Virus record (IMG/VR): IMGVR_UViG_3300033068_001467
Location: 1 to 64,000 of that record
Strand: one strand, 5' to 3'
DNA length: 64,000 bases
From: a virus
Taxonomy: Duplodnaviria > Caudoviricetes
Shown here one piece after another: positions 3,301-62,596 of the stretch. The notes below the pieces were generated by a model. That model was not told the origin of the DNA. It was given only the letters and a program-made list of their open reading frames with translations, and did not search any database. The position numbers and the translations under genes are program-made. How positions within the stretch are numbered: position 1 is the first letter of the stretch; each line of letters opens with the position of its first letter.

Positions 3301-3588
3301 GCCGTCGTTATTATAACTTATGTATTAATCTTTTTCTTTATGTGCTTTATTTTTTATGGCGGAATTCTTAATTAATCAGTTTTTTGATTTACTTTGAACT
3401 TAGTTTTTCCGCCGAATTAATTAATAGCACATATTTATTTTAGCAGTTTTTTGCGCAAAACAAATAGAAGAACAGCTTTATGTTTAAAGATAATCAATAG
3501 ATACAGTAAAAAACGGAAGAGTTTGCAGATTTATTAGTTGCCTAAATTATACCTAAATGTGAAAAAAGTAAAATAAATTACTAAAAAC

Positions 3589-3619
3589 TTGTGTAATTCA
3601 AAATAATTAATTATATTTG
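3589..3619 (+). promoter_or_regulatory. Bacteroidota-type promoter
   Basis: TTG 3589, TATATTTG 3612-3619; near-identical to the promoters at 6370-6400, 11674-11704 and 48134-48164. Confidence 0.75.
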
Positions 3620-4471
3620 CAGAATAATAAAACAAAAATTATGTATAACACAAAAGAAAAAGCTAAAGAATTAATAAATAAATTCAATACAATTTTTGGA
3701 ATACAAAGTATTATGTGGCAAAGTGTTGTTAAAGAACACGCTTTAATTTGTGTAGATGAAATATTGAAAACATTTGTATCTGAGTATAATCCGAATTATG
3801 AATGTGATGAAATTAAATACTGGAAAGAAGTTAGAGAAGAAATTCTGTCTTTTTAATCTTTTTTTCCGAAAATTTAAAAATAAAAAGTATGAAAAGTAAA
3901 GAAGATTATATAGAGTTTTTCAAAGAAAAAGCAAACTATTTATCAAATAATGTAGGCTCAGGAGAATTATGGAACAGAACTGAGTTTTTTAATAAAATAG
4001 TAGGCATTTTATTAGAAGTAGCTGATACAGTACAAAAAGATACATTGGAAAATTTAAAAAATGAATCAACAAACTAAATTACACTTAGAATGGCTTTCTA
4101 TAAAATCGGCGGGCAGGAACTGCGTTCTAAAAGAAAAATACAAAGATATTTTAGATAGAGAAAAACAAAATAAATTAACAGAAGAAGATATAAAGTTTAT
4201 ACAGAAATTAGAAAGCTGTTTTCTTTAAAGAACTTTGTTCTAAATTTTTTTCGCGCAAAAAAATAAACTAAAATGACAGAAAAAATAACAGAATTAATAT
4301 TACACCATAAACTAGCTTGTGAAGAACTTACAGAGCTTATAAATGAACTTTATGGTTTAAAAGGTAAGGAAGGTATAGAACAAGAAATTGATGCCTCTAT
4401 AGAGCGTTATTCAAGCGAAAAGGCGTGGCGCAAAGTCTTCATATCTCAACTAGAAGATTTAATTTAAAATT

Positions 4472-5381: not shown

Positions 5382-6369
5382 ATTGCTATGGGAAAAACTT
5401 ACAAACACAAAGGAGAAGGTAAATTTAAAAATACAGACACTCCTATAGATAAAATACATAAATCAACAGTTTTAATGTGGGATAGGCATAATTCAGATTT
5501 TGGCGAAGATAAAGAAAGACAGCTTCAAATAAAAGAAAAAATCGCGGAAAAAGAAATGAAAGAACAGTTAAATATAGATGAATACAATTTCAAACAAAAC
5601 GGAGAGTTTATAGAAGATATAGATGACCCATATTATACTTCAAAAAATAATGCAAGATAAAGATATTTTAAAAATTTATATGGAGGGGTTTAATGATGAG
5701 TTAAATGGAAAATTTGACCAAGCTAAAGTTAATCCTAATATAGATGGTAGAGCATATAATTTAGGCTCATTGCACGCCATAGTAGGAGATGATTTCAGGT
5801 CAGTTGATTATTTAAGTGATAAACAAATATTAGAAATTTTACGTAAAAAAGTTAAATAAAATGGAAAAATTTAAGACAGTACATCAAACTAAAAATGATT
5901 TAGAACAGTTTTACACTAAACCACTAACTCCAAGTGAAACATTAGAGTTAATAACTAGAACTCAAATTAAAACATTAATAAAAGCAAATCCTAATGATAC
6001 TGAATTAGGAGCTATTGTTAGAAAATTATTTTCATAATAAAAAAAAATAAAATATGATACAGGAAATGGAAATGACATACCAAGAAAAGTATGATTTATA
6101 TATGAGTTTAGAAAAAGAAAGTTTAGTTAAAATGTTAATTGAAGCTAATAGGCATTTAAGCAGTAGACCATTAACTTGGAAAAATGAAGGATTTTGCCCT
6201 GATAAAATACCTTATAATCAAATTTGTTCATGTAATCCTTTGAATGGGGGTTCAGGTGTGTGTGGGTGTACTATGGCTAATGAAATGGTTACAACTACAC
6301 CTTTTAAAACTGAGTATGTAACAGAAATAACTTATAATTCGGTGAAAAAATAATAAAAACAGTTAAAAC

Positions 6370-6400
6370 TTGCACAATTCAAAATAATTGTTTATATTTG
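6370..6400 (+). promoter_or_regulatory. Bacteroidota-type promoter
   Basis: TTG 6370, TATATTTG 6393-6400, ATG at 6405. Confidence 0.75.
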
Positions 6401-6404
6401 TAAA

Positions 6405-6845
6405 ATGATTAGAAAGAAATATAAAAAACTTGATTATAGTACAAAAGACTTAGAAAGTTTGTCTAATTCTGATTTAAAGAAAGTTGCCGATTATGAACTA
6501 CGTAATTATTTACTAAAAGGAGAAACTTATTTATGGTGTCCTATAAAAAAAAGAACCTATCATAAAGACCAAATGCATGTAGCTCATTTTATTGATAGAG
6601 GTATAATGAGTTTAAGATATGATTTAAGAAATGTACATTTAATTTCTGCTGTTTCTAATACATTTGATGCACAAGTTCAAGTTGATGGTTATAAATCAAA
6701 ACATCATAAAGAGTACGAACAGTTTTTGATTGAAGAATATGGTTTTGATGTTTTAGATTTTTTGCGCGAAAAAAGTAAAGAAATAAAGATATTTTATAAA
6801 AACGATTATATAGAAGTAATAAATAAGTTTAGAAATAATGAGTGA
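6405..6845 (+). CDS. NinG/Rap-like junction endonuclease
   Basis: KKVADYELRNY...MHVAHFIDRGIMSLRYDLRNVH...SNTF...Y..FL...YG matches the NinG family pattern (Cys ligands partly lost). Confidence 0.7.
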   Translation: MIRKKYKKLDYSTKDLESLSNSDLKKVADYELRNYLLKGETYLWCPIKKRTYHKDQMHVAHFIDRGIMSLRYDLRNVHLISAVSNTFDAQVQVDGYKSKHHKEYEQFLIEEYGFDVLDFLREKSKEIKIFYKNDYIEVINKFRNNE

Positions 6846-10923: not shown

Positions 10924-11685
10924 ATGCCAATGCAAAATAAACCAAAAAGAGAGTCTAGAAAACCATCTAAAGTAGTAGATAAAACTCTAACTTCATCAAA
11001 TACAGAATCTATTAGCACAAGAAATTCAGACAATTTTAGATTGCAATTAAAGGATATACAAAAACCAATTGTAAACTTACACAGAGAAAATGACATAGTT
11101 GTACTCTTAGGTGGTGCGGGAAATGGAAAAGACTTTATGCAAATCTATAGAGCTATGTCAGGATTAATTAGTAAAGAGTTTGAAGAAGTTATTTTTATGC
11201 GAACAATTTTAGAAGCTACTAGTTCTAAATTAGGCTATCTTCCTGGGGATGAGACAACTAAGGAAGCTCCATACCTTGAGATATTTTATGACCAAATGAA
11301 AAGTATGTTAAAACCCGCTGTATATGAAAGATTAAAAAAGAAAGTAAGATTTGAGTATCCTGGATTTGCAAGAGGGAAGTCTTTTGGTGGAAATGATAAA
11401 GGAAATGTTTGTATTATATTATCGGAGGCGCAAAACTGCGAACTTAGAGAATTAATTTTGATTAGTACTCGTTTATCTGAAGGTTCTAAACTATATATAA
11501 ATTCTGACCCCAATCAAAGTGATATTGGTAATAAATCAGGTATATTAGATTTTATCAAAATTGTAAAAGATATAAAAGGTGTTGCTGTTGAGGAACTTGG
11601 AGAGGAATTTCAAATGAGAGGTAGGTTAGTACAAGAAATTGATAATAATTATAGAAAATTTTTAAATAAAAACTTGCACAATTAA
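10924..11685 (+). CDS. phoH: PhoH-like ATPase
   Basis: LGGAGNGKDF, LGYLPGD, ARGKSF, ILSEAQN, TRLSEGSK, DPNQSDI. Confidence 0.9.
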   Translation: MPMQNKPKRESRKPSKVVDKTLTSSNTESISTRNSDNFRLQLKDIQKPIVNLHRENDIVVLLGGAGNGKDFMQIYRAMSGLISKEFEEVIFMRTILEATSSKLGYLPGDETTKEAPYLEIFYDQMKSMLKPAVYERLKKKVRFEYPGFARGKSFGGNDKGNVCIILSEAQNCELRELILISTRLSEGSKLYINSDPNQSDIGNKSGILDFIKIVKDIKGVAVEELGEEFQMRGRLVQEIDNNYRKFLNKNLHN

Positions 11686-11816
11686 AATATAATATGTATA
11701 TTTGCAGAAGAAATAAGAAAGCAGTGTTAGTCAGCACATAAATAATTGGAAGTATAACCAAAAGATTTCTGTTTTTATCTTTTTTGCGCAAAAATAAACT
11801 AAAAATAAATAAAATT

Positions 11817-14285: not shown

Positions 14286-14326
14286 TAAATGCTTGATTAT
14301 CAGTAACTTATAATAATACAAAACCA

Positions 14327-15045
14327 ATGTCAGAAACAGAAAAAAAACCAATTAACCTAGCAGATTACACTTACGAAAAAGGAACTAAAATTGAAATTAG
14401 TTCAGAATTGTTTGAAGCACTTATGGAAACTCTAACTATTGTAGAGCAACAAGAAACTAAAAACGTTCTTTTAAATACTTTTCCGCAAGCAAAAGCTAAA
14501 GATAAAATTGAATATAAAGACCACGACGCAAAAACGTTTTTCAGCCAAGATGTACAAACAGCCTTAACAGTTGTAGGAGCAAGTTGTTTAGATTTAAAAT
14601 TTAACTTACTTCAAGTTCATCAGGAAAATGTAATTTCAGGAAAAGCTATTAACAAATACGAAGTAAGAGATGAAGTTAAACTTTCATAATGTGTGGCACA
14701 ACCACCTAAAAAAAGAACTTGGAGCATCTTTTGTAGGGTTTGAAACTTATAGAGACAAAATCTCTCTGAAAGTTACGGTGAATAAGAAAACAAGATATGT
14801 AGATTTGAAAGTGGGGTTGGATAGACTTGACCCCACAGTCTACAATAATATTTTAAACGATTTAAAGAATGAGTTATAAAAAATTGTATGAGACCTTGTT
14901 AGAGAACGAAGACTTGTATGTTTTATTTGATGGAATGACAGGTGTTTGGGAACAAGATAAAAAAAGATTTAAAGAAGAACAATTAAAATTAGAGTCGGAC
15001 GCTTTTGACTTAAACATAGAAACAGAAGATGACTACACTGAATAA
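14327..15045 (+). other. Three small hypothetical ORFs (14327-14689, 14670-14879, 14869-15045)
   Basis: ORF track plus manual translation (MSYKKLYETLLENEDLY...); overlapping starts and stops. Confidence 0.6.
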
Positions 15046-16555
15046 CGAACACTTACTTTATGGATTCAATCACGCCTGCAATTCAGCAAAATTAACTTTA
15101 GGAGCTGAAGGTAAATTAGCAGTTTTAGAGAAGCAAATGGGTATGTTAACATACACTAAAGATGGTGTATCAGTTGTAAAATCTATTTTCTTTTATGAAG
15201 ATGTTAATAGTACGGCGGAAGAAAGAGCTATTATAAAGCAAAAACAGGTTGGAGCTAATGCCGCTAAACAAGTGGCTGTAAAAACTTTAACAGAGGCAGG
15301 CGATAACACTACAACAGCCTTAGTTTTAGCACAAGCACTTTTAAATAAAGGTCTTAAAGCAAAAGCATCAACAGTTGAATTAAGAAATGGAATTGAACTT
15401 GCTTTTAAAGATGTTGTTAAAGAATTAAAAAAGTTGTCAAATGTTGTAACCAAAGAAGATTTAGTGAATATTGCAACTATTTCCGCTAACGGAGATAAAG
15501 AAATTGCAAATATGCTTATTAAAGCTTATAGTGAAGTTGGAGATGGTGGAATTGTAGATATTGTAAAGGCAGATTCTCCTACAACAACTTTCAAAAGTAT
15601 TAAAGGTATGAAACTTGAAAAAGGATATATGAGTCCTTTTATGGTTACAAATAACGAGAGTTTAGTTTTCGACGAGCAAGATGTAACTGTGATTGTTTGC
15701 GAAACTCCTTTTGGAACTACTAATATTGCTCCTTTAGAGCAGTTGATTGGGCAGATTAAAACGCCTATTTTAGTTATTGCCGAAGATTTTTCAGAAGATG
15801 TTGTTAACAGTTGTGTTTATACACATTTGAATAAAATCAGAAGTTTATGCTTAGTTAAAACACCTGACTTCGGACAAAACAGAAAAGATTTATTACAAGA
15901 TTTAGCAGTTTATACAGGGGCAGAGGTTTACATTCCAGGAGTTTCAGAAAACTTTGTAGTAGGAACAGCTAAAAAAGTGATAGTATCAAAAGACACTACC
16001 TTTGTAATTCAAGATGAACTTAATGAGGCTTCGCAAAAAAAACTACTTTCATTGAAAGAACAAGAAACAGATGATGAAGAGTTTTTAAAGAAAAGAATTG
16101 CTAACTTTGAGAATGGTGTTTCAACTATCTATGTAGGCGGTATTACAGATGCAGAGAGAGATGAAAAATATGACAGATATGATGATGCTAAATGTGCTAT
16201 TAAATCGGCTTTAGAAGAGGGTTATGTAGCAGGCGGTGGAAGTACATTCTATCATATTTCAAATAAATTAAAAGCACCTAAAAAATTAAAATCAGGAGAA
16301 AAAGTTGGGTATAATGTTTTATTAGATTCTTTAAAAGAACCTTTTCTACAAATTTTAAGAAATGGTGAAGTTAAATGGAATTGGTGGAATAGACTTAATA
16401 ACTATGGAGATTTATATGACATCAAAGAACGTAGAATTACAACAGCAGAGAAATCAGGAATTATTGATTCTACAAAATCTTTGAGGGTGGCTTTGGAAAA
16501 CGCTAAATCCATTTCAAGTTTATTAATTAACACAAAAATTATAACAACTTTATAA
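15029..16555 (+). CDS. groEL: Phage-encoded GroEL-like chaperonin
   Basis: LTLGAEG, TKDGVSV, AGDNTTTA, IATISANGD, KTPDFG, IANF, YVGG, EEGYVAGGG, GIID..KSLRVALENA. Confidence 0.95.
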   Translation: MTTLNNEHLLYGFNHACNSAKLTLGAEGKLAVLEKQMGMLTYTKDGVSVVKSIFFYEDVNSTAEERAIIKQKQVGANAAKQVAVKTLTEAGDNTTTALVLAQALLNKGLKAKASTVELRNGIELAFKDVVKELKKLSNVVTKEDLVNIATISANGDKEIANMLIKAYSEVGDGGIVDIVKADSPTTTFKSIKGMKLEKGYMSPFMVTNNESLVFDEQDVTVIVCETPFGTTNIAPLEQLIGQIKTPILVIAEDFSEDVVNSCVYTHLNKIRSLCLVKTPDFGQNRKDLLQDLAVYTGAEVYIPGVSENFVVGTAKKVIVSKDTTFVIQDELNEASQKKLLSLKEQETDDEEFLKKRIANFENGVSTIYVGGITDAERDEKYDRYDDAKCAIKSALEEGYVAGGGSTFYHISNKLKAPKKLKSGEKVGYNVLLDSLKEPFLQILRNGEVKWNWWNRLNNYGDLYDIKERRITTAEKSGIIDSTKSLRVALENAKSISSLLINTKIITTL

Positions 16556-16560
16556 AAATA

Positions 16561-16716
16561 TTTGTGCATTTAAAATAAAAGTTGTATCTTTGCATTATAA
16601 CAATGGTTTACATCAATAGCGGTGATAGTAAATTTTTGTAATCGGCAGTAAAAGATAAAACAACAGTAAAAAAATTAATAATTAGGCTTACTTAATCCGC
16701 TACTAATGTAAGCCTT
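16561..16716 (+). promoter_or_regulatory. Promoter plus leader tag (TAGCGG) and hairpin whose loop carries CCGCTA
   Basis: TTTG 16561 / TATCTTTG 16585-16592; stem AGGCTTAC/GTAAGCCT. Confidence 0.55.
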
Positions 16717-16828
16717 AACGTTAGTAGCAAGCTTAGCTTAAAATTGACGATTAGAAAAAACTAAACATAAATGAACTTTGAATGTTGTAATAAGGATAGA
16801 ATAGAGTGTTCTAAGTGGTCAAAAAAAC

Positions 16829-17257
16829 CTACTGACAAATCTCTTTTTTTTCAGTTGAAGCAGAACTTTTATCAGTTGTTGAATAGATTGAAAATAAAAT
16901 AGATAGAATTGCCAAAAACATAGAAATGAAAGCAATCAAGATATTTCTTTTTGAATTTTCATAATCTATAAGTTTAAGACAAGCATCTCCTTTCATAATA
17001 AAATTACAAGTTAAATGATTTTCAAAATCATCAAAACTTACAAGCTTTTTATCTGAACCTTTATGATGAAAATTATCATAAAACCACTGCTTAATCGCTA
17101 ACTCAATACAATCACAACTAAAATCATAATTTTTCTTTATTAATTCTTCTTTTAATGTGTTGTAAGACAAGCCATCTTTAGCCGTCTTTCTTCCAATTTT
17201 AAGAACATCAATATATAAATTATCGTAGTTAGGATTATCACTTTTAAAAATAGACAT
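16829..17257 (-). CDS. Hypothetical protein with C-terminal TM helix; accessory gene against the local gene direction
   Basis: ORF track; hydrophobic ILIAFISMFLAILSILFSIY; inside the groEL-groES insertion. Confidence 0.65.
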   Translation of the reverse strand: MSIFKSDNPNYDNLYIDVLKIGRKTAKDGLSYNTLKEELIKKNYDFSCDCIELAIKQWFYDNFHHKGSDKKLVSFDDFENHLTCNFIMKGDACLKLIDYENSKRNILIAFISMFLAILSILFSIYSTTDKSSASTEKKEICQ

Positions 17258-17393
17258 AAATAAAAAATTAAAAAAATGGAAACAGTTGAAAAAAAAACAG
17301 AGGAAATTTTAAAAATCCTAAAAGGTTTAACTTTAAGACAGTATAAACAAATCATCAGACTTTTGGAAGATAAAGTTACAGATACATATAAGA

Positions 17394-17564
17394 TTATTTA
17401 GAAGTATTAGTATCAATATATCCCAACTTAGTCACAACTTCATCTAATTTATCACAAACATTATCTGCACCATAATCAGATGCTAGTTTTGCGGACATAT
17501 CAGAGAGTTTAGTACTTATTTCTTGTAATAAGTCAATCATAGTTTGTGCTTGGTCTTCTGTCAT
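17394..17564 (-). CDS. Small hypothetical protein
   Basis: MTEDQAQTMIDLLQEISTKLSDMS...; ATG at 17564. Confidence 0.55.
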   Translation of the reverse strand: MTEDQAQTMIDLLQEISTKLSDMSAKLASDYGADNVCDKLDEVVTKLGYIDTNTSK

Positions 17565-17638
17565 AATAAAATTATTTAAAGTGAAAACCAAATATAATAA
17601 AAATTTTGTAAGTTAGCCACAAACAAAATATAAACGCA

Positions 17639-17932
17639 ATGAAAAGAGGATTTGGAGTTTTCTTTATAATAATTGGAATATTAAATCTTATAATCGGTTT
17701 TCTAGGTTTAGCAACAGAATATAAATCAGAAGCATTTTCTAAAATTATTTTTGGTTTAGTTGTTTTACCACTTGGAATTTGGATGTATGAATCTTCAAAA
17801 CCAAAAGAAGTTGAAAAAAATTATGAATACAAGTCTTATAAACTTAAAAAGCTAAAGAAAAAACACAAAAAGGAAAAGAGAAGACTTAAAGTAAAAATCG
17901 AAAGTGAGTTTCCTATAAAAAAGAAAAAATAA
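17639..17932 (+). CDS. Small membrane protein; cassette-like gene
   Basis: Two TM segments and a Lys-rich tail; preceded by GTTAGCC (17612-17618) and followed by GCTAAC plus an attC-like repeat. Confidence 0.7.
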   Translation: MKRGFGVFFIIIGILNLIIGFLGLATEYKSEAFSKIIFGLVVLPLGIWMYESSKPKEVEKNYEYKSYKLKKLKKKHKKEKRRLKVKIESEFPIKKKK

Positions 17933-17940
17933 AGCCGATT

Positions 17941-18071
17941 TGCTAACAGCGGTTTTGCAATAGTGTGGCTTTAGTAATATTTGTAAAATTTCGGGCGAAA
18001 ATAAAAATTAATAATAATCGGCTATCTTTGGTGCTTATTTGCCCACACCATTGCAAAGCCACAAAACGTTA
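17941..18071 (+). repeat. attC-like recombination site (TAACA...ACGTT orientation)
   Basis: GCTAAC-A-GCGGTTTTGCAATAGTGTGG ... CCACACCATTGCAAAGCCAC-AAAAC-GTT; long imperfect inverted arms bounded by AAC and GTT. Confidence 0.75.
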
Positions 18072-18073
18072 AA

Positions 18074-18322
18074 ATGAAACCAATATTTAAACAAACAGAA
18101 GTTGTAGTTTTAGAACCTGAAAAATTAGGAGGAGTAGATTTAGGTTCTTCAGCTAAAGAAATTAAAGCAGTAGTCAAGTACATAGGAAATGAAACTAAAC
18201 TCTATACTGTGGGCGAAACAGTATTCTTTGATGAAGAAAGGTCTAAGAAAAAAACAATAGAGGGAGAGAAATTAATGATTATTGACGAAAGATACGTCAT
18301 TTGCGAACTAAAAGAGGTGTAA
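18074..18322 (+). CDS. GroES-like co-chaperonin
   Basis: 82 aa; mobile-loop-like KLGGVDLG, AVVKYIG...TVGETVFF...EGEKLMIIDERYVI; first resident gene after groEL once the insert is removed. Confidence 0.7.
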   Translation: MKPIFKQTEVVVLEPEKLGGVDLGSSAKEIKAVVKYIGNETKLYTVGETVFFDEERSKKKTIEGEKLMIIDERYVICELKEV

Positions 18323-18336
18323 AAGCCTCTTTTTTT
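18311..18336 (+). terminator. Intrinsic terminator
   Basis: AAAGAGG-TGTAAAAG-CCTCTTT followed by a T-run. Confidence 0.8.
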
Positions 18337-18433
18337 GTTTTTATGTAAAATTTTTTAGTTTTTATTTGGTGGTTTGAAAAATTAGTTTTATATTTGCAGA
18401 AGAAAAGAACAAAATTCAAAAATAACAAAAATT

Positions 18434-19156
18434 ATGAAATACACAAGAGAAATTATTATAGCAGGATTACTAATACTACTACTTTCAGTTTACAACTGTT
18501 CAAATAACAGACAACATGAGTTAGCAGGAGAGGCTGTACAATTAAAACAGCAACTTAGAAAACAAGTCGATGGACTAAAAACACAAAAAATTAGAAATGA
18601 ATTTTTATTTGATTCTATTTCGGCGGAAAATAAAAAAAGAGACTTAGAAAATTTACAACTTCAAAAAACAAATTTAGCTTTAATGCAAAGAATAAACTAC
18701 AATGCAAAACAAACAGCTAAGAAAAAACAAGAAGTGAAAAAATATTCTTTTAAGCAGTCTGCTGAATTCTTGGCTAAACGTTATGAAACAAAATCTATTG
18801 AGGCTACACCTACATCAGTTAATCTAAAAGAGAATATTCCTAACAATGTAGTGGAAGAACTTATAGATAAAGATGCTATGGTGCAAGATTTAGGAGATTT
18901 ACATAAAATTATTGAAAATAAAGACTCTGAAATAGGTAATAAAGATAAAACTATTTTAAGTAAAGACCTTGAAATCGCCGCAAAAGAAATAGAAACAAAG
19001 AAAACTCAAGAAGCTTTAGACACATCTCAGGAAATAACTAAAAAAATAGAGAAAGAATTAAAGCAATTAAAAACCAAAACTTTTATTTTAAAATATATTG
19101 TACCACCTGCCGCTTTTATTGGAGGAGTTTTAATTGGAAAACAAATTGTGAAGTGA
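18434..19156 (+). CDS. Membrane-anchored coiled-coil protein (signal/lipoprotein-like N-terminus, C-terminal TM)
   Basis: IIIAGLLILLLSVYNCS; long heptad region; IVPPAAFIGGVLIG; promoter at 18365-18396. Confidence 0.6.
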   Translation: MKYTREIIIAGLLILLLSVYNCSNNRQHELAGEAVQLKQQLRKQVDGLKTQKIRNEFLFDSISAENKKRDLENLQLQKTNLALMQRINYNAKQTAKKKQEVKKYSFKQSAEFLAKRYETKSIEATPTSVNLKENIPNNVVEELIDKDAMVQDLGDLHKIIENKDSEIGNKDKTILSKDLEIAAKEIETKKTQEALDTSQEITKKIEKELKQLKTKTFILKYIVPPAAFIGGVLIGKQIVK

Positions 19157-19405
19157 TGAATAACTGCTTAACGCACTTACTAAACCTTTGGTTAGAGGGG
19201 CATAGGTTTATTATTTTAACTAATGAAGACCATTTTATAGGAGTAAATAATAAAAAAATCTTTGAGTTAGGAGATGCTTTTAAAAAAGATTTGCAGTTAG
19301 GGTATTCTTTAGGTGGTGGAAATAGTTATTTACCTTTAGAAAAAGGTGGAAAAGAAAGAATAAAAAAGATTTTTAATTTAAGTGAAAAATATAGTAAAAT
19401 ATTAG

Positions 19406-26986: not shown

Positions 26987-29325
26987 ATTTGTGGGAATGT
27001 GGTGTTTTTTAGTTGAGGAAAATTATTTTATTGTGTGGGTGTAGTATTTTTAAAATTGTAAATATATGGTTAAAAGATTTTTAATTACGGGGGGTAATAT
27101 TTTATTAAATAAAAATGATTTTACGAACATTTCTCCTGTATGACCAATATACAAGTCGGTCAGTCTAAAATTCATTTCTACTCCTACCCGTACCTAATTA
27201 TATCAATCGAAAATTATCGTGCCTAAAATCGAGTTTTTGTTTGGTTTTGAAAAAATGTTTTTTATTATGTACGTTTATAAGGTTTTTGTTTATAATAATG
27301 TACATTTTGCCGTTTTTTTATCTTTTTTGTGCCGTTTTTATCTTACATTATTGTAAGAATTTACTTTATTGATTGTGTAGTTTGTCGATGTTTTTATGCA
27401 GTTAATCGATTTTATTAGGTTTTATTTGTTTTGTAATGGTTTTATGTTGTATGTTTGCTCCATCAAATAACAACAACGAATATTAATTTAATCTTATATA
27501 TTATGAATGCAATTACAATCGAAACAATAAATTTTGATACAGTTATAGGATTTTTAACAACGTTTAAAGAACTACCTAAAAAAGCTGAAAACATTGGTTA
27601 TGTAGTTGAAAATGATACTTTGCAAACTTACGCCATTTATAAAGTATTTAAAACTAATAAAACTTATTTAATTAAAACACTATAATTATGAAAACAACTT
27701 TTAAAATCATTCGCTTTTGGTTATCTGTTAATTATAATCAAATTTTTATTCTGTTCTTTTTAATCTTTTTTACGGCGCAATTATTACGCTTAATCTTTTA
27801 AATACTAATGCTATGAATTACTTCTTATTAGAAACTCAATCCGACAAAGGTACATTATTTTTGAAAACTAATGCAACCAACAAAGAAACAGCAATAAATA
27901 ACTTTTGCAACCTTTACAATGCACCAAAAACCGCCGTAAAAAATGTATATAAATTTGAATTAATGTTTTGGAACTTTAAACCTATTACATTAATTCGTAA
28001 AAACCTTGCAACACTATGTTAAAAATTAACAAACATTCAAACTATTATGAAGCCTTATTTTTAGGCGGCAACTTATACGCTTTTACTTTGCTTGACTTAT
28101 TTAAGCAGTTACTAACTATCTATAATATTAGAACTGAAATATTTACTTTTGATAACTTAAATTAATCCGTTTCTTTTTAACTTTTTTCGGGCGAAAATAA
28201 ACATAAAACAAAATCTTATGAAAGTACTACCAGCAACAAAAGTATTACAAAATGTAATTGAAGCAAAAGAAACGGCACAAAGTTTCTTAAAGTATGCTAT
28301 TGCAAACAAACAACAAAACGAAATTGATTATTGGAATAAACAAATTGAAATTTTCACTAATTTATTAACTAAAAAATAATAATATGAAGCCTTGTTTAAG
28401 TGAGTTAAAAAATAGCGATATAGTTAAACTAATTGAGTTTAATGTATTAGAAACAAAGGAGGGTAAAACGAGTAAATTTTTACACAATCTTATAAATATA
28501 GGTACTTCATTTACTTACCTAAAAATAGGAGCAAATTTGTATCAAATATCATTTAGTAGTGGTAATTTTTACCCTCAAATTTATAAGGTTTATGCGTGGC
28601 AACATATACCAAGTTATCAACCAATTGATTATTATTTATTTAAAAAAGTTGATGACAGTATTAAAGTAAGTCAATATTATGGTAACTTAAACACGTATAG
28701 AAAATTAAACTAAAAACCGCCGTAAAAAATTAAAAAAAAATGAGTATAGAAAATATAACCTTTGAAAATACAGACACTTTAAAAGATACATTAACCAAAA
28801 CCGTACTTTTAAATGCAGGTAGTCACAGATTAAAAACCGAACTTACAAAGTTAAAAGTAAGCTACACAAAAGTATGTAAGGGTGCATTCACTACATACAT
28901 TTTGAGAGGTAAAAATATAGGAGTATTAAAAGTTAAATTATAAAAATTTCCGCAAAAAAGAATACAACAAAAGAAAAAATTTACTATCTTTACAATCAAT
29001 TTAAAAACATATATTATGTACACAATTCAATTAACAACAACAAAGCAAGTTAAAAACCCAAACACAAAAACAACCTATAAAAATGAAAGTGTTGAGGTTA
29101 CAACAATAACAGACAAAGAATATCATTTAATTACTAATGAGGATACAGTTAAATTCTTTAGACGTTTGGGAGGTAGTGAAAGTTTACAACGGTCTTACAC
29201 TTGTGCGGGTTATAAAGTTTATAAAATGGTTTACACAAGTCCTGACAGACAAAACAAAACTATTAGAGAATTTAAATTTATTGATAACTCTTAAATTCGG
29301 GCGTAAAAAACTAAAAACAAAAGTT

Positions 29326-29849: not shown

Positions 29850-29881
29850 AAACCGCCGTAAAAACTAAAAACAACAGAAAA

Positions 29882-30181
29882 ATGAAAACAACAACACTAT
29901 TAAAAAGATTGAAAGGTATTCCAACAGTTGAAGCCTTAATAAGTCCAAGAAGCGGGGAAGCAGTAAGAAACCAAGTTGTTATAAATATGAACAACGGCAA
30001 AGTATTCCAAAGCTATGAAAGTACAATAGCAATAGAGTACAAAGGTATAACATACCTAACTAATAAATTTGATTATTCCGTTACAACAAGTAAGTACTTG
30101 AAGCAGTTTTGCGGAAAGTCGGCAAAAGAAGTTAAGACAGAACTAAAAAATAAAAGTAAGAAGTTTGTTTTGTTGGAATAA
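29882..30181 (+). CDS. Conserved phage early protein, paralog 1 (FQSY...DYSVTTSKY)
   Basis: Clearly homologous over its full length to 34567-34869. Confidence 0.75.
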   Translation: MKTTTLLKRLKGIPTVEALISPRSGEAVRNQVVINMNNGKVFQSYESTIAIEYKGITYLTNKFDYSVTTSKYLKQFCGKSAKEVKTELKNKSKKFVLLE

Positions 30182-30758: not shown

Positions 30759-33700
30759 TAAGGGTGGGACAACCCCCAACAACCATTTTAATCATAGGTT
30801 AGTAGGCTCAAAAACCAACAAAACAAGTATAACAACACCGATATATAAAGATAAAAAATACAGTTTCTTTTTTTAGTATGGTGGTAAAAGTAAAAATTAT
30901 GATAACAGAAGGACAAAAAGTAAAAATTAATACAGGAACTTCGCCAACAAAAACAGGGTTAAATATCTTATCAACAACAGTAAAGAAAGTTTTATCTAAT
31001 GGTAATTTTATAACTTATGATTGCGAACCTTATTTTGGATATAATTTGTTTAACGTTAAAGATATTGTACTATGATTATTTATATTACTATGTTTATATT
31101 TTTTGTAATTGTTATATCGATTAGTGTATTAGCTTATTTTGATAAAAATGGTCACAATCCTTTTAAGTAATCTTTCTTTTTTAATTTTTTCCCGCCGAAT
31201 TTATTTACAGTAAAAAGATTGAATAGACATTAATAACAGCCGTTTTAAGGCACTAAAAACATAAACACTATGACAACTATTAAAACAAAACTTTTAGCAC
31301 ATTTAAGACAAGATAACGATTTTAATAAATTTGATGACACTATTTTAAAACAAGTAGTTGAGAATTTAGAAATTAAAAACTATCTATTAGATAAAGAATA
31401 CCTTGATATTTCTTATCTTATTATAGACAATAAGATTATTAATTTAGATGAGATTTATTTTCTTTGTAGAGATTTTAACCTTTAATTCTTTTTTACGGCG
31501 GAATTTAATTTAAACATATTATAATTATGAATACAACAGAAAATAACAAATTAATTTTAGAATTTATGGGCGAACCTCATAAAGTTTGGCAAGATTTAGC
31601 ATATCATTCAGATTGGAATTGGTTAATGGAAGTAGTAGAAAAGATTGAAAACTTAGGCAGTAAAAGTGCAATTGTAAATCATTTAGGGAAGCATATTTTT
31701 ACTGTCTCATTAAATGATAATATAATTTCAGAAGATGGAAATACTAAAATTGAAGCTGTTTACAATGCTTGTGTAGAGTTTATAAAGTGGTATAATGAAA
31801 ATAAATAATCTTTTTTTGCGGAAATTCAAAATTATTTATTATCTTTGACAAAAATTAAAACATTATGAAAAAATTTATAAAAAATTATGTTGAAAAGTTT
31901 GGTTATAAACCTACAATATTTGAATTGTTTAATTATTATACTAAGGGTATGTTAGTTTTAACAGATAGCGAAGAGAATAGTTTGTTATTAGAATTTGAAA
32001 ATAATAATTTACTTTAATCTTTTTCCGCCCGATAAAACTAAAACAAACAGAAATACATTAATAGACACTATTTTTAACCATTTTAAAACATTATCTTATG
32101 AAAACAATATCAAACTATCAACAAGCAAAACAAACGATTAAAAACGTTGCAGATGAAGTAAAGAAAAATCACCCAACAGATAAACCACTTATTAGAATGA
32201 CAATTAATGATGAAGTTAATAATTTAAGTTATAATTTAACAGAATATCAAAGAAACTTATTAAGTAATTATGCTTGTAAGTTGCATCCTAAAGATTAAAT
32301 TCTGTTTTTATTTTTTTGCGGAAAATTAAAAATATAACTTCGGCAAAAACCAACTAATTTTGCCAATAATATACGAAACTATGACACAAGAAGAAAAAAT
32401 TGCACAACAAAGATATGATAACGGGGAACAACCAAGTATATCAACTTTTATAGACGAGGACACAATTATTATGGGTTATGGAAAATTAGACTATGACTTT
32501 GAATTTCCTTTACCCGTTGAAACAGTAAGACAAATACATAAAGCAACATCGTGGAGCGAAAAGTTTAAAAAAGAAGGTTATAACAGATATATAACTACTA
32601 ACAAAGAAACTCAAGAGCAATGTATTTTAGGTTGGTGCAAAGAAGAAATAGTTGAGCAATACAGAAAGGAAAATCCGAATCATTTAATTGAAATTTTATT
32701 ATGAAACTATCAGACTTAAGAATAAATCAAACTTTTAAATTAGCGACAAGTGATAACACTTGTATATTTAGAGGTTATATTTATAATGGAAGTACAAAAA
32801 AATTCTTTTATGAATGTGTAAATAGTGGAAACACAATTGAAACATATAACGATTATGAAATTTTAACATAAAAACATTTGTATATTAGAAATATTATTAT
32901 ATCTTTGATTAATCTTAAAACCGTTTTTTATTCTTTTTTCGGCGAAATTAAAAGAAAGTCTTATGAACGTAACAGAATTAAACCAAGACCAATTAGAAGA
33001 GTTAAAATGGACTTACTTCTATGATGTAGAGAATGATTATGAATATGCTTGTCAGATACCTAATGAAGTTATCTTTCAGCATTATGCACATATTAGTTTT
33101 GTAGAGGAGGATTTTTCATCAAAAATAGAATAGTTATGAAAGCAGGAACACAATTTGAAATTACACTAATTGCTGACGAAAGATTTTTAGGTAATTGTGC
33201 AAATGTAGAAACACTTTTATCAGTTTTTAGAAGCAGTTTAAAAACGGCAGTTAGTGGCGAAGGTATTGAAATTTATTCTTTTGGTGAAGAAAGAGTTTTA
33301 GATGACTGGCAAGGAACAGAAAAAGAAAAACAGATAAGACAGAAAGTAACACTTATTTTGTCGCAAAAGAAAACTAAAGAAGAAATTTACAAAGTAATTA
33401 ATCAAGTACAAAGTCAACCAATAAAATTTTTAAGATGAAACTATCAATATCAACAATTAAAATAATTTGCAGTTTGTGGCATTATCCTGAAGAAATTTTA
33501 GAAGATAAAGAGTATTTAAACTTAACAATTAAGCAAATAGATATAACAGATATAAATTTTTCGGCAGAAGAAAAAGAAACAGCAAAAGAAGAAATAAAAG
33601 AACTTTTAGAAACATTAAACTTATGAAAAAATTAAATTTAATAAACGATATTTTATATATTATTAAAACTTACGGAGATTTTAACACAAGTGTTATCTTT

Positions 33701-34566
33701 GCAGAAAGTAGTCCAAGTATTAATACAAAAGGAAATTTAACACATTTACTTGAAGAATTTTATGATAATTGTGTGAAAGTAAATGTTTATGACAGCAGAG
33801 ATACTGAAATTGACACTTACACTTTGAAATACGAAGAATTATCTTTACCTTTGTTAAAAGAGATTAAATATTTAGCTATAATTTGGCAAGAACAACAGAA
33901 ACAAGAGTTAAATTAATAGAGAAGAGTTTGATTGATAATGAAATTGATTTTTAACTTTTTTCGGCGCAAAATAACATTAAGATAAGCTATGAAAATACTA
34001 ACAACAGAGAAACAAGAAATTATCCGCCTAACAATAAAATCAGAAAAACAAACAGAATACCTCAACTTAATAGAAACAACACACGAACAAGCAGTTAAAT
34101 ACATTCAGAACTTGTTTAAAGAATATACTATTAAGAAAGGAGATAAAACTACGGTTGATTTGAGATATAGTTTTTCAGGCAAAAATGGAAAATCTATCCG
34201 TTGTTCTTTTTATTCTATTTCGGCGGAAAAAATTAAAGAAAAAATAATAACCGACTTAGGTCATAAAAATTTAACAAAATAAATTAGTTTATTAAAATAA
34301 AAATTGTATATTTGTACTATACGAAGTGAACTTAAAAACAATAACATTATGACAATTAAAAAATTCGATTATTCAAAAAGTAAAGAAGATATATTTTATA
34401 AAGTATTGTATCCAATTTATGCAAAGGAGTTTTTATACGGTAACAATTATGAAAACTTTGCTTTTACTGTTTCGGCAAACTTTATATTAAATTCGGAGCA
34501 GTGGGAGTATATTTTAGAACATTGGGAACAAAAAGAAAGTATTTTAACAATAGAAAATAAATAATT

Positions 34567-34869
34567 ATGAAAACACAAACATTATTAAAAAGATTAAAAG
34601 GTATTCCACAAGTAAGACCTTTAACAAGTCCAAGAAGCGGTGAAAAAGTTAAAAACCAAGTTGAAATAATTATGAATAACGGAGTAGTTTTTCAGTCTTA
34701 TTCTTCTACTATTGCTATTGAACATAAAGGAGTTACTTATCTTACAAAAGATTTTGATTATTCAGTTACAACTTCTAAATATTTGAAACAATTTTGTGGA
34801 AAATCGGCAAAAGAAATTAAAACAGAATTGAAAAATAAGAGTGTTAAATTTAAAATGTTAGAACAATGA
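34567..34869 (+). CDS. Conserved phage early protein, paralog 2
   Basis: MKTQTLLKRLKGIP...SPRSGE...FQSY...DYSVTTSKYLKQFCGKSAKE. Confidence 0.75.
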   Translation: MKTQTLLKRLKGIPQVRPLTSPRSGEKVKNQVEIIMNNGVVFQSYSSTIAIEHKGVTYLTKDFDYSVTTSKYLKQFCGKSAKEIKTELKNKSVKFKMLEQ

Positions 34870-35544: not shown

Positions 35545-38391
35545 TTATGAACAAAAAATACAACTTATTAGTAAAAATAAAAAATCAAACAGTTTTAAGA
35601 GCAGAAGATAACAGACTTAATAGAATATTTATTAAAGGTTTGTTTGAAGGAGAGAATTATAAAATTTCTGTTCTTTAATTCTTTTTGCGGAAAATTAAAC
35701 AATAAACAATTATGAAAACAATACAATTTACAGGAGAAGAACATAAAATAGAAAATTTACACTTAGCTTTAGGTATTTCAGATAATGATATGCCACAACA
35801 AAGTGAGATTAGAGTTTATGTAGTAGATACAGAAGATGAAAAGCACACTTTATCAATGAGCGATGATGAATTTATGACTTTAGCAGAAGAGCAAGGAACA
35901 GTTTATACATTAGAAAGTTTCCAACACGCATTTAACTATGGAGATGTTAATGCTTTTACAGATGTTATAAGATTTATTTCTGTTCCTTTATTTTAATCTT
36001 TTTTACGGCGAAACTATGACACCAACAACAAAAACAATTTTAAGAGAAGGTATTAACACATTTTTAGCTTCAACAAACGAAGAAAAAGAAAGATTGATAG
36101 CCAAAGTACAAAACAATTTAGAAATTCACTACAACGCTTTAAATTCAATTGGAATGGGTTGTGTTGAAGACCAAGTTCAAGCAGGTAGAATCTTTTTACG
36201 AATTTTTGGCGGAAAAAACAATTAAAAATAAGATATTATGAACAAAAATATAGTACAAGACTACTTAAACAAAAACTCTCACATAATAGATGAGAAAGTA
36301 GTTGTAAAAAGTATAGTAGATAATGGAAATTATATCACAGCTTATTGTGAATGGAAAAGTGAAGAAGGTTTGAAAAGTGATTATCTAACAATATCTTTAT
36401 TTGATTTAATGGTTTTTATTTATTCTAAAATTTAATATTATGAACAATTGGCAAGAATTTAAAGCAAGTGAACACTTTGGTTTAGTACAAAACAAAGATA
36501 TTGATTTAAAACTATTTAATGGTAGAGTTATTTCTGTTTATCAAGTTGTTGGAGTAACTATTTTAGATAATAAAAATAATGAAATTTCTTATAAAGATAT
36601 TGGTTGGTTTTGCGCAAAAAAAGACTATAATAGGTATAAAAAACTGCAAAAACATCACGAGTTATTAGAAAAATATAACTTTGATACTTTAGATAATTTT
36701 GAATTTGCTATCTACGATACTTACACACAGCAAGAAGATAGAGATAAAATAACTAAGTTGTTTAAGAAGTTAAAAAATCATATTGAAAAAGCACAAGAAC
36801 AGATATTAACAGAATCTAAAACATTTTTATAATGACACTGCAACAATCATTAGAATTTATATATCAAAACTATTTTAACATCTTAAACTTTTTAAAACAA
36901 TGAAACTAAAAGATATTTTAAACAGCATAAATTTTGAAGATAAAAGAATACAAACAAATCCTGATTGGGAAGAGTTAGCTCAAGAATTTGGAATTGATTT
37001 ATATTGGTCAGAAGACAGCAGACTAAAAGCATACCACGTAAAAACTTGGCAATGTACAGATACTTGGGTTGGTTGGGAAGCGTATTTCTTAGATAAGGAG
37101 TTAATTTGTCTTTCTTCTCAAAATGCAAGAAAATCAGATAAAGATTTTGAATTTATTTCAAGAGAAAGTTATATTAAAGTTAAAGATTATTTATTAAGTT
37201 TAACTGTGGATGAAAAAACTATTAATATTCTTGACTTAGAATTTAATATACCCGAAAAATACACTATAAATTATAATGACCAAATCTTACATAAGACAGC
37301 TTGGTTAGATGGAAGTAAAGTGGAAATTTTAAAAAGAAAATATAGTTTTAATGAAAAAGAAAAGTATTTTCATACAGTTGAAATAAAAACAGAAGATGAT
37401 AATGTAAAAGAAGTTGATTGCAGAGAATTATTGTTTGACTATAACACATTAGATTAATTATGAACAATTTTATAAATAAACTTTTTACATTATCGGGTTG
37501 TGTAACAGGTATATTATTTATTTTAGTAGCTATCAGTTGGTTATTTGATAATGAACCTAATAATTTATGGAGAGTCTTTACTTCGAGTTGTAATATTACA
37601 ATAGTAACCTTTCTTTTTTACCTTTTATTCGGCGGAAAAAGAAACTAAAAACAGAAAAAATTATGAGCAAAATACTAGAATTAAACGGATATAAATATTC
37701 AAGAGAAGAGTTTGAAGATTATAAGTTCAGAACTATTTTCAGAATAGGTACAGACACAGATTGGATAAATGATAATAATATAACTATTTACACAAATAAT
37801 CCAAGTAAAGAAGATGTTGACAAAGTAATATTATCAAGAACAACAGACAGAGTAGTTTCTTTTAAAATGGAACATTGGACTACAAAAGAACAAGACGATT
37901 TAACATCACAGTTTTTAGAAGAAACCTTAAAAGATATTTAATTATGAAAGTAGCACTTGTTGGAAATTAAGCAGAAAGTAATTCAGTAAAACTATTAATA
38001 TTTGGATACACACAATAATGGAAACAGAACACATCTTCGCCAATTTAAACAGAAAAAAAGCTTGTTTGCAAGTATTCTCTAAAGATTATTTTTGGGAAGT
38101 ATCTTCTTCTCCTAGAGAGTGGAGTTACAAGGAATTAAATCATAGAAGGCATTATGATTTTGCCAAAGAAATGAGTGAGAAATTCGAGTTCATTAAAAGT
38201 TACAAAAAACCTACTGAAGAACAAACTAAAGAATTTTATGAGTGGTTAGAAACAATTAATTTAGAATATTATTTTTTAAACGATGAGCAGTAAAGCAGAA
38301 GTTTTAGAGAAAATAAACCCCAACATAAATTATATGGTAGAAGAGTGATTACATACAGACTAACCAATTTTTATAATTCATTTTTATTCTT

Positions 38392-39927: not shown

Positions 39928-40880
39928 AAAATTAAAATAATTGTTGCGTAATTCAATAATAATCAATACATTTGCAAAATGAAACTAGAACAAAAAAACC
40001 AAATAGAACACTATTTATTAATGGCAGTTAAGAGATGTACTGAATTCGATGAACAAAATGACATAGCTTTAAAAGCTTATTGGAAGGGTCAAGTTTATGG
40101 AGTTATAAAAATGATACACGTACTTGAATTAAATATTGATGACATATATTGGTTAAATCAACTACCATGATAGAGCTTCAAAAAATAGACTGTAATTGTA
40201 ATGATTGTATATTTATGGTTAGAGATATGGAGAAGTTTAAATTATCACTTAAAACGCATGAAAAGTGGCAATTAGACTATTTCAACGTAACTAAAGCTAA
40301 TCTTAAAAAACGCGCCGAAGAAAGAAAACTAAAAGGAGAAACAGAAAAAGCTAATAACATACTAAAAGAGATTAGTAAAATGCGTTTTCAATTTGATAAA
40401 AGTACTTGCTCTATTAACTATGGAAATTGTACTAAGTTAAATAAATCTGTCTCTTTCATACCTAATATATTGCAAATTGAGACGCAACATTGTTTTAAAC
40501 ACCGAAGAGAACTATGAAAACAATTCAAGACTATCAAAAACGGCACAATCACATAAAAAACTATTGTGAAAAAATGATTACTAAGTTTACAAGAACTTTA
40601 GAAGAACATCCTAATAGTTTTGATGCGCAAATTAAAAGAAAAGCATATCAGGATATTTTATATAAATTAGACTATGAAAATCTCGGCAATAAAAACTGAA
40701 AAGGAAAAAATAGAAATACAAACAAACAAAGGAAATATAATTCTAAGAAAGTTTGGTAAAGACTATATATCACAAACAGATATTCCTTATGGTTTTTCTA
40801 AAGAGAGTAAGTTATATTTACAGATAAAGAAATGTTTAATAGCAGGAGAATCTTTAGAGCAGTTTATAGGTTGCTGTTTT

Positions 40881-41016
40881 TAACGTTTTGCGGCTATACG
40901 AGGTTGTTGCCGAATTAAAAACAGACCTCATAAACATAAACTAAATTTTAAAATTATGACTGAACTTTCAAAAAATGCCGAATTGCAACAATCTTGTATA
41001 ACCGCTGTTATAAGCC
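40881..41016 (-). repeat. attC-like site (TAACGT...TGTTA on +, i.e. inverted relative to the gene)
   Basis: TAAC-GTTTT-GCGGCTATACGAGGTTGTTGC ... GCAACAATCTTGTATAACCGC-T-GTTATAAGCC; arms match at 18 of 21. Confidence 0.8.
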
Positions 41017-41240
41017 GTTTTTCTAACACAATTGAATTATGGTTAAAAAGCGATATTAACGGAAATTGGATAAGGAACGAAAAAAACACAAATACGTTTA
41101 CCGACATTAAAGGCGGTAGAGCTTTGTATGTTTATGAAGACTGCATTAAGTATTGGGATGATATTAGACAACATTCTGGAGTTTGTGAATATATGATTCC
41201 AACTTCAAAAATAGAGTTGTTTGATATACTCGGTGGTTAA
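40956..41240 (+). CDS. Cassette gene, hypothetical protein
   Basis: Starts inside the attC loop; bracketed by GTTATAAGCC (41007-41016) and GGCTTATAAC (41244-41253). Confidence 0.7.
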   Translation: MTELSKNAELQQSCITAVISRFSNTIELWLKSDINGNWIRNEKNTNTFTDIKGGRALYVYEDCIKYWDDIRQHSGVCEYMIPTSKIELFDILGG

Positions 41241-41243
41241 AAT

Positions 41244-41305
41244 GGCTTATAACTCCTATATATAAACAACCAATATAAACACTAATAAAATCAATACTAT
41301 AAGCC
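41244..41305. promoter_or_regulatory. Candidate attI-like site abutting the integrase start
   Basis: GGCTTATAAC ... TATAAGCC-ATG short inverted repeat, with no long attC arms. Confidence 0.4.
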
Positions 41306-45200: not shown

Positions 45201-45369
45201 ATAATTAAGTAGTATATTTGCAGAACAAAAATAATAAATAGATTGACAGTTCTTAAAAGACAGCCTTGCTCGGTGTAAAGAGGTGTAGGGGATATAAGAT
45301 TAAGGATATGTATTACACCACAGAATTCCTGCAATCTATTTTTAAACTCAATTAAAACAATAAAAAAAG

Positions 45370-45790
45370 TAAGCAACTAACATTGGTGAATATCCAAAGC
45401 CATAAAAACTATAAGGTTAGAACACTAACAAGAAAGTGTGTTTGTTTACTGAGTATAATACGAGTATCTTGAACAAAGCGGTTGACTAAGGCTGTGGAGT
45501 AAGATTAGATAAAGTGTTCCTTAATCTTGAATAGGTGAGTTTTTTTAAAATATACAGAAACGGTAACTGACATGATAACCAAGTGAAAAGTGCCGTAGAA
45601 ATAGAGCATCTTGGCAACGTAAATGCTTTCCAAATCTTAACGTTGTATATATTGGTTAGTACTATACCACATAGGAAAGGAAGTACATTTAAAGATTCAG
45701 AAGTTCCAATGGCATGGGCTTGAAAAGTAAAAATATGATAAAGAGATTTTCATATCTGTTAGATAGAAGCTACACAAACTTTTCTTCTGT
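45370..45790 (+). ncRNA. ROOL-like large structured RNA (candidate)
   Basis: ORF-free about 600 bp gap downstream of a promoter (45189-45220). Blocks GAGTATAAT, GCGGTTGAC, GGTAACTG..AACCAAGT, TGCCGTAGAAATAGAGCA, GGCAACGTAAATGC, CCAATGGCATGGGCTTGAAAAGTA and ATATGA..TTTTCATAT resemble ROOL as recalled. Closing helix about 45431-45445 with 45771-45785. Confidence 0.55.
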
Positions 45791-62452: not shown

Positions 62453-62484
62453 AAACATGATAAAAATATTCGTAAGCTATCATA

Positions 62485-62538: not shown

Positions 62539-62596
62539 TGGTGCGGTTAATTAACGAGAAATTTAAATTGAAATACTAAACAAAAAAATATTAAAA

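Follow-up and report, generated by a model that had tools for sequence, protein, structure and literature searches.

The DNA analysed here, called the window below, comprises positions 1 to 64,000 of the virus record IMGVR_UViG_3300033068_001467 (Duplodnaviria; Caudoviricetes) and is the first part of an 87.8-kb viral contig of the IMG/VR database. Its chaperonin gene groEL is separated from the following groES-like gene by about 1.5 kb of DNA, in which a block of small genes lies between two complete copies of a hairpin site. We consider it probable that this DNA is a mobile gene cassette, or the fused remnant of several, within an integron-like gene-capture system of Bacteroidota and their phages.

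The insertion between groEL and groES

An earlier note, made from the letters of the window alone, had described some 1.5 kb between the two chaperonin genes with two open reading frames (ORFs) on the minus strand and a membrane-protein-like gene. All of these are present (Table 1) and the gap measures 1518 bp. According to a script, free-standing ORFs on the minus strand are otherwise almost absent after 2.0 kb, in agreement with the remark that such ORFs are unusual after position 2033.

The nearest GroEL proteins returned by a protein search (P0002, P0004 and P0005) are 51-54% identical and lie on three metagenomic or viral contigs. In the contigs L004, L005 and L006, a groES-like gene of 78-82 amino acids overlaps or abuts the groEL stop codon; groES is placed likewise in L003, and in the more distant elemo phages of Flavobacterium groEL is fused to an annotated groES. 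The adjacency of the two genes that had been expected of related phages was thus found in all of them. Three small genes upstream of groEL are syntenic with L004-L006. Because groES abuts or overlaps groEL in all relatives found, the 1.5 kb is an insertion relative to every one of them. The three ORFs of the insert have no homologues in L003-L006, nor among 239 site-bearing loci. Blastn of positions 14300-19200 gave no match to cultured phages, and a locus search with a single GroEL sequence as query returned no relative.

The groES-like gene scores 17.5 bits with the Cpn10 family, below the gathering cut-off of 21.1, so that membership in this family is not reached. It is 38-44% identical to the 78-82-amino acid gene fused to groEL in L004-L006, and this identity, together with its position, supports its being the orthologue of the groEL-linked genes in the relatives. 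The counterpart in the elemo phages is annotated as a co-chaperonin. The insert breaks the tight groEL-groES coupling seen in all relatives and so bears on the expression of the co-chaperonin of this phage.

Two complete hairpin sites

Blastn of the spacer gave short significant matches in the relatives, in the intergenic gaps of the variable region downstream of groES, and these gaps hold one element repeated head to tail between small genes. Complete copies of this element stand at both ends of the insert (sites A and B, Table 1). A covariance model, R1, was built from 12 site copies, and 541 sites were located by nhmmer in the fetched loci. With its flanks the whole site measures about 150 bp and reads, from 5' to 3', as a variable flank, AAC-A, a conserved inner box, a covarying stem, an A/T-rich centre, the return stem with its inner box, AC-GTT and a second variable flank. 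From AAC to GTT, site A spans 124 nt and site B 126 nt; of the first 13 copies, 12 span 124-128 nt, and the set of 541 has its peak at 123-126 nt.

In the alignment of 12 copies (A1), AAC and ACGTT are invariant and compensatory changes occur at 11 of the 14 predicted stem pairs. The mean folding energy of the sites is -16.5 kcal/mol, and that of shuffles -8.8 kcal/mol. Folding of a single copy as DNA (17925-18080) was uninformative alone (z = -0.1), and the structure emerged through covariation. Over the window Rfam matched a tRNA only, the tRNA-Met (CAT) at 2582-2654, which was also the sole match of ARAGORN. The family shows the traits by which attC-type sites are recognised: AAC at the left, GTT at the right, and a structure conserved more than the sequence.

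The motifs quoted in the earlier note are all in place: GTTAGCC at 17611-17617, GCTAAC at 17942-17947, ACGTT at 18066-18070, three bases ahead of the groES ATG, and ACGTTAG at 16718. The "130-bp repeat" that the note had placed before groES is site B, and its score under R1 is far beyond chance. The core-like motif noted at 16719 exists too, and is more than a core, being the right end of the complete site A. The claim that the repeat is reversed relative to the copies near 40.9 and 62.5 kb agrees with R1, which finds those copies on the opposite strand.

The last groEL codons (window 16536-16548) contain a string of 9 nt that is repeated exactly at the left end of site A (16592-16604), AAC-A included. 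The same string is also found in groEL of L005, and might represent a secondary target.

A rule linking neighbouring sites

Throughout the family, the 7 nt behind GTT in one site and the 7 nt ahead of AAC in the next are reverse complements of each other. A complementary run of at least 4 nt joins 194 of 293 adjacent site pairs (66%), against 4.6% for shuffled partners. The rule holds at six of six junctions in the relatives, with 6-9 complementary nt, and at all three junctions of the array that adjoins the recombinase gene int2 (Table 1). In the 541-site set the two flanks of the same site are not complementary. In 292 of 293 cases A stands at +8 after GTT; the base there is never complementary to its partner, and pairing resumes at +9 to +12. 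Sites have a single orientation in 72 of the 76 loci with three or more of them. The base opposite the +8 A, at the other end of the cassette, is almost always C or G, which makes a conserved mismatch outside the core.

Gene orientation relative to the sites is strongly biased as well. Phage cassette ORFs are antisense to the site in 231 cases and sense in 11, and host cassette ORFs are sense in 190 and antisense in 37. Since the groEL/groES array is flipped with respect to the other arrays of this phage, the antisense bias puts the two typical cassette genes of the insert on the minus strand.

The same cassettes in other contexts

The earlier note had expected homologues of the insert genes in repeat-flanked arrays, and those of the membrane-protein gene do lie in site-bounded cassettes. 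The two ends of these cassettes match over 9 nt and their junctions are exact, at AAC and GTT. One of them (L252) has the same four-gene layout as the insert, and another (L250) holds the membrane-protein gene with different partners, including a homologue of the 56-amino acid gene. L253 and L254/L256 have a cassette and its hairpin in common and part right after ACGTT, and L250 and L253 have a cassette end in common and part after AAC. In a wastewater contig (run X4, record 25), 22 unrelated letters are followed by sequence that matches the insert from 16717 on. Such divergence right after ACGTT would be compatible with strand exchange between G and TT of the right-hand core, but an invariant pentamer does not allow the exact phosphate to be placed, and junctions occur at AAC too. 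Contigs from four sequencing runs gave no skip across the insert and mostly showed the conserved left arm of site B in many contexts.

The blocks of the insert have different relatives, and the block of the 142-amino acid gene matches a contig (L257) that has no detectable site. Because the insert's own ends are not complementary, we read it as a likely mosaic, or as two cassettes fused with loss of the middle site.

Recombinases at the start of arrays

Two tyrosine recombinase genes, int1 and int2, are carried by the contig (Table 1). Both match PF00589 with E values of about 1e-40, and each stands 285-335 bp from the upstream end of its site or array, int1 being associated with one site and int2 with four. 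The first cassettes at both genes are bracketed by a complementary pair whose integrase-proximal partner is without hairpin. At int1 this cassette holds a 94-amino acid gene, located between the site at 40870-41021 and int1 and bracketed by a 10-nt complementary pair, of which the int1-proximal partner (41244-41253) forms no hairpin. Within the int2 array, the left flank of the short site at 62474-62544 is complementary over 9 nt to the right flank of the site at 63495-63644. In the phage (int1, int2) as in the host arrays described below, the sites run in one direction from a recombinase gene at their upstream end; the hairpin-less first sites are those near int1 and int2. An identical 16-mer (41283-41298 and 64947-64962) stands ahead of both phage genes, in the spacer that separates the start codon from the hairpin-less first site; it could be an attI-like or a regulatory element.

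The best NCBIfam models for int1 and int2 are those of XerA and XerA/integron integrase, all with scores below the curated cut-offs. The integrase_gron model gives int1 169 bits, in two stretches, against a cut-off of 265. Residues 18-176 and 195-272 of int1 align with 17-179 and 241-318 of VchIntIA (2a3v); between them int1 has 18 residues where VchIntIA has 61, and is thus about 43 amino acids shorter at the IntI-specific insertion. Among proteins of known structure the closest in sequence is Pyrococcus XerA (4a8e, E 7e-38), and weak matches to models of tyrosine-type DNA invertases (E 1e-16 to 5e-10) are below cut-off. Because the recombinases lack the IntI-specific insertion, they are not IntI by the usual definition, and the system is integron-like rather than a canonical integron. 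The groEL/groES insert itself, without an adjacent int gene, is similar to a cluster of attC sites lacking integron-integrases (CALIN).

A 293-amino acid gene in the int2 array was called a C5 DNA methyltransferase from its homologue in L004, which carries PF00145. It is a recurrent cassette gene, whose start abuts a site in many unrelated viral contigs (L014, L024, L025, L076, L104, L107, L151).

Spread in phages and hosts

A strict DNA pattern of the site was matched in at least 119 viral and at least 120 genome contigs, almost all of them from Bacteroidota, with Flavobacterium, Chryseobacterium, Pedobacter and Chitinophagaceae among the taxa. Application of R1 to 100 viral loci gave 303 sites, with up to 14 in one array. 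Five host genomes were examined; their arrays, which count 7, 18 and about 40 sites, begin no more than about 1.2 kb from the gene of a recombinase homologue of equal length and 37-39% identity. IntegronFinder 2.0 reports almost no integrons in Bacteroidetes (PMC9024848), and a search of one full-text library found no description of recombinase-linked arrays in Bacteroidota.

The earlier note had proposed that cassettes of a host-chromosome type were captured by the phage and that the two cassette pools exchange genes. The first part stands insofar as the site family is shared with the chromosomes of Flavobacteriaceae and other Bacteroidota, where it forms arrays; a host origin of the genes is not supported. 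Only 4 of 242 phage-cassette ORFs have a homologue among 227 host-cassette ORFs (in this sample of viral loci L011-L129 and genome loci L130-L249), gene orientations also differ between the two, and the relatives of the 142-amino acid gene sit in phage-like contexts without sites. These results do not demonstrate capture of the insert from a host chromosome.

Genes and segments inside the insert

The coordinates of the insert, its neighbours and the other arrays are collected in Table 1. A promoter-like element reads into site A; it belongs to repeat families D2 and D4, whose members are found repeatedly ahead of genes of the window, and a similar element precedes the first site of L006. Its consensus is of the Bacteroidetes type, and the element is a putative promoter.

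The 142-amino acid ORF has 78 representative homologues, none of them named, and no Pfam family. Its block (16757-17285) is 76% identical in nucleotides to L257, and the contexts of its homologues (L257-L259) are phage-like, with no site detectable by R1. The 41-amino acid ORF is of doubtful reality: the related four-gene cassette L252 has a 49-amino acid plus-strand ORF at the matching place, and no sequence similarity between the two was found. The 56-amino acid ORF is 67% identical to the 56-amino acid gene of the cassette L250, which also holds the membrane-protein gene.

The 97-amino acid product of the membrane-protein gene gave weak Pfam matches only, all below cut-off, and its membrane helices are putative, being judged from hydrophobic stretches. 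Identity to its homologues is 89-93% across two thirds of its length, and the segment 17581-17884 is 85% identical in nucleotides to L250-L256, which are short metagenomic contigs. We rejected this gene as a cassette of its own starting at GTTAGCC, as the earlier note had delimited it. That motif lies inside a leader conserved with the homologous genes in the L250 and L253 cassettes, which have their ends elsewhere, and what sits between the two full sites is the whole block of three or four genes.

Table 1. Positions of the insert, its neighbours and the other sites and recombinase genes; R1 is the covariance model of the site
Feature	Position	Strand	Evidence or remark
groEL (508 aa), left neighbour of insert	15029-16555	+	Pfam Cpn60_TCP1, E 4e-37
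Promoter-like element, Bacteroidetes type (TTTG, 20 nt, TAnnTTTG-type box), reading into site A	16556-16598	+	Repeat families D2, D4
Site A, complete hairpin site	16587-16734	+	AAC 16599-16601, GTT 16720-16722, 12-nt flanks; R1 95.4 bits, E 1e-17
142-aa ORF, hydrophobic C-terminus	16829-17257	-	ORF list; antisense to site orientation, usual for phage arrays
41-aa ORF, doubtful	17276-17401	+	ORF list
56-aa acidic ORF (65 aa from TTG at 17591)	17394-17564	-	ORF list
Divergent leader between 56-aa and membrane-protein genes, contains GTTAGCC	17565-17638		Conserved with L250, L253
97-aa ORF (membrane-protein gene), two hydrophobic stretches resembling membrane helices, then lysine-rich tail	17639-17932	+	ORF list
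Site B, complete hairpin site	17933-18082	+	AAC 17945-17947, GTT 18068-18070; R1 112 bits, E 3e-21
groES-like gene (82 aa), right neighbour of insert	18074-18322	+	Pfam Cpn10 weak, E 0.004
Site by int1	40870-41021	-	R1 102 bits
int1, Xer/IntI-like tyrosine recombinase (276 aa)	41306-42136	+	PF00589, E 6e-39
Short-form site (47 nt AAC to GTT), last of int2 array	62474-62544	-	R1 40.3 bits
C5 DNA methyltransferase cassette gene (293 aa)	62597-63478	+	Antisense to sites
int2 array site	63495-63644	-	R1 56.9 bits
Further int2 array sites	63982-64131 and 64490-64636	-	R1; reach past window end
int2, tyrosine recombinase	64971-65804, beyond window		50% identical to int1

Proposed explanation and alternatives

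The following course of events would account for these observations. A recombinase would bind the site, probably folded as single-stranded DNA by analogy with attC, and strand exchange would fall within ACGTT. Cassettes would then be cut out as circles and insert anew at any site already present. The groEL/groES block would have arrived as such a cassette, in the orientation opposite to the other arrays of the phage, and would later have been scrambled by recombination inside cassettes, because of which its two ends no longer match. The cassette genes presumably bring their own promoters, and their products (small membrane and acidic proteins here, DNA methyltransferases elsewhere) probably serve accessory functions in host interaction or anti-defence.

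Several observations weigh against an integron-like cassette. No recombination event was observed directly, the evidence consisting of comparative junctions. The groEL/groES cassette itself breaks the rule, as the agreement between the site A flank that follows GTT and the site B flank that precedes AAC extends no more than 2 nt beyond GTT. No recombinase gene lies near the insert, int1 being 23 kb off, and among five near-complete phage genomes with large arrays a recombinase homologue is present in two and absent in three. The recombinases are without the insertion by which IntI recognises the extrahelical bases of attC. A strict integron mechanism, in which exchange occurs at GTT only, would not be expected to give junctions at AAC. 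The bottom strand folds better by just 0.4 kcal/mol, and is the more stable one in 273 of 500 sites. Finally, the relatives have no site between groEL and groES that could have been a target for the arrival of the first one.

Three other explanations of the repeats were considered. The best placed of them, which is nevertheless unlikely, takes the repeats for regulatory promoter or terminator hairpins that were shuffled by homologous recombination between their arms, in the manner of promoter-stem-loop (PeSL) cassettes, without a dedicated recombinase. The centres of many sites hold motifs that recur upstream of genes throughout the genome (families D5, D9-D11), a promoter-like element stands ahead of site A, the conserved arms offer 20-25 nt of homology, and three of the five phages with large arrays have no recombinase homologue, all of which would suit such hairpins. 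Homologous recombination would not, however, yield the complementarity between the flank after GTT and the flank before AAC (66% against 4.6%), and neither the invariant unpaired A at +8 nor breakpoints exactly at AAC and GTT would be expected from it. Arrays that start beside tyrosine recombinase genes, in the phage as well as in hosts, also speak against regulatory hairpins alone.

Slightly less probable again is that the complementary flanks are inverted repeats for the inversion of segments, as in a shufflon or inverton, which would switch, between two convergent genes, the one facing a fixed promoter in the hairpin and would mobilise no cassettes. Bacteroidota are rich in invertible promoters. 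Each segment is indeed flanked by inverted repeats of at least 12 nt with conserved GTT, A(+8) and AAC, segments of L004-L006 often hold one plus-strand and one minus-strand gene, and the weak, below-cut-off matches of int1 and int2 to invertase models would fit. Against inversion, the same cassette and hairpin have different downstream neighbours in L253 and L254, which is reshuffling, the membrane-protein gene keeps its orientation relative to its site in every context seen, and frequent flipping would blur the strand biases of 231 to 11 in phages and 190 to 37 in hosts.

Very improbable, lastly, are independently inserted elements of the miniature inverted-repeat transposable element (MITE) type, two of them held by ordinary accessory DNA: the sites are short and non-coding, have terminal inverted repeats and abound in Flavobacterium genomes and phages, and a census of MITEs, which may have counted the present elements, reports many shared by Bacteroidota and their viruses (PMC11602168), but the sites lack target-site duplications (3-5-nt direct repeats at 0-1 of 536 sites, equal to the shuffled expectation, with a 3-nt repeat at one), form unidirectional arrays, obey a rule that links neighbouring elements, and adjoin tyrosine recombinases, not transposases.

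The cassette of an integron-like system, which we continue to prefer, may belong to something wider. We propose, tentatively and with slightly less than even confidence, that Bacteroidota and their phages have in common a second, so far unrecognised kind of integron. Its marks would be a short XerA-like recombinase without the IntI insertion, a hairpin site of fixed length (125 nt) that has an invariant unpaired A beyond its core, and arrays in host chromosomes of up to dozens of cassettes. Lytic phages would use it to swap promoter-bearing accessory or anti-defence cassettes through sites flipped relative to the genes, borrowing the host recombinase if they have none of their own, and the insert would be one such swap caught in a core operon.

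The site family is easy to model, occurs in hundreds of phage and Bacteroidota contigs, obeys a diagnostic cassette rule, and is linked to a recombinase without the domain that is regarded as defining integron integrases. If the recombinase acts on these sites, the IntI insertion is not required for cassette recombination at hairpin sites, and the hypervariable small-gene regions of many aquatic phages acquire a mechanism, as the gene traffic between phages and hosts acquires a testable route.

Other features of the window

An upstream element of 60-80 nt recurs at 3569-3628, 6343-6424, 11654-11713, 16542-16601, 18346-18405, 45170-45229 and 48114-48173. It consists of a TTG box, about 20 nt, a box of TAnnTTTG type and then CAGAA, a promoter type of Bacteroidetes, and its copies are probably early promoters of the phage. 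A second dispersed motif (families D5, D9-D11 and D16) is found on both strands as a T-tract, CGGCG or GCGG, and an A-tract, for example at 3848-3884, 27758-27787, 31481-31510, 35991-36020, 37614-37661 and 45790-45837. It could be a phage-specific promoter or terminator, and motifs like it stand in the centres of many hairpin sites.

A 300-nt direct repeat (29861-30160 and 34546-34845, 4.7 kb apart, 74% identity) probably reflects paralogous genes. Among the relatives, L005 (1-542) has a PhoH homologue of 665 amino acids with internal LAGLIDADG/Hom_end matches, suggestive of an intein, and L004 has a GIY-YIG homing endonuclease gene beside phoH.

Comparison with known systems

In T4-type phages, Arbiol et al. 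reportedly described in 2010 small accessory genes of hyperplastic regions flanked by promoter-stem-loop repeats, the PeSL cassettes, which are said to shuffle as modules by homologous recombination. Complementarity of cassette ends, fixed AAC/GTT junctions and a linked tyrosine recombinase are not known for PeSL.

Integrons are the textbook gene-capture device of Proteobacteria, and from phages they are reported mostly as a few orphan attC clusters. The present system resembles them in several ways. Its imperfect hairpin sites start with AAC, end with GTT and form unidirectional arrays with junctions at GTT; the bases that follow GTT are complementary to those ahead of AAC in the downstream site belonging to the cassette; the recombinase upstream of the array, behind a hairpin-less first site, is of the Xer/IntI clade and has a C-terminal SPL motif that aligns with VchIntIA; and satellite arrays without integrase occur. 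In contrast to integrons, the recombinase has only about 277 amino acids, without the IntI insertion of about 43, and scores below the cut-offs of integron-integrase models; the site has a nearly fixed length of about 125 nt and inner boxes that are conserved in sequence; the flank is made of 7 complementary nt, an invariant unpaired A and 4 or more further nt; and junctions are found also at AAC. Phage cassette genes are antisense to the site, have their own promoters and often come several to a cassette. The host phylum is again a difference, as this system belongs to Bacteroidota, where IntegronFinder reports almost no integrons (PMC9024848).

Qi et al. 2023 described CALINs in virulent phages, among them Polaribacter phage P12002L, whose cassettes hold methyltransferase genes; two sites of that phage were assayed there, and one predicted attC site was recombined by IntI1 (PMC9892861). 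In P12002L (L260) we find two short-form sites of the present family, at 30005-30060 and 30905-30960, flanking methyltransferase genes, which may be those assayed in that study. One scores 20 bits under R1 and the other was read by eye, and one of the two shares its 11-nt loop with the short site at 62474-62544. The methyltransferases of P12002L have no similarity to the C5 methyltransferase of the window. Phage CALINs and the present arrays are alike in that attC-type sites flank DNA methyltransferase genes and small genes, P12002L being itself a phage of Flavobacteriaceae. They differ in that the published CALINs were detected with generic attC detectors and reported with no cognate recombinase, and in that a Bacteroidota-specific site family, host arrays and the 125-nt long form are not described there (PMC9892861).

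With the XerA/XerC/XerD recombinases, finally, int1 and int2 have in common the two-domain layout and the length of Pyrococcus XerA. Xer proteins use a single duplex site of 28 bp, of dif type, whereas here two phage paralogues adjoin arrays of 125-nt hairpin sites.

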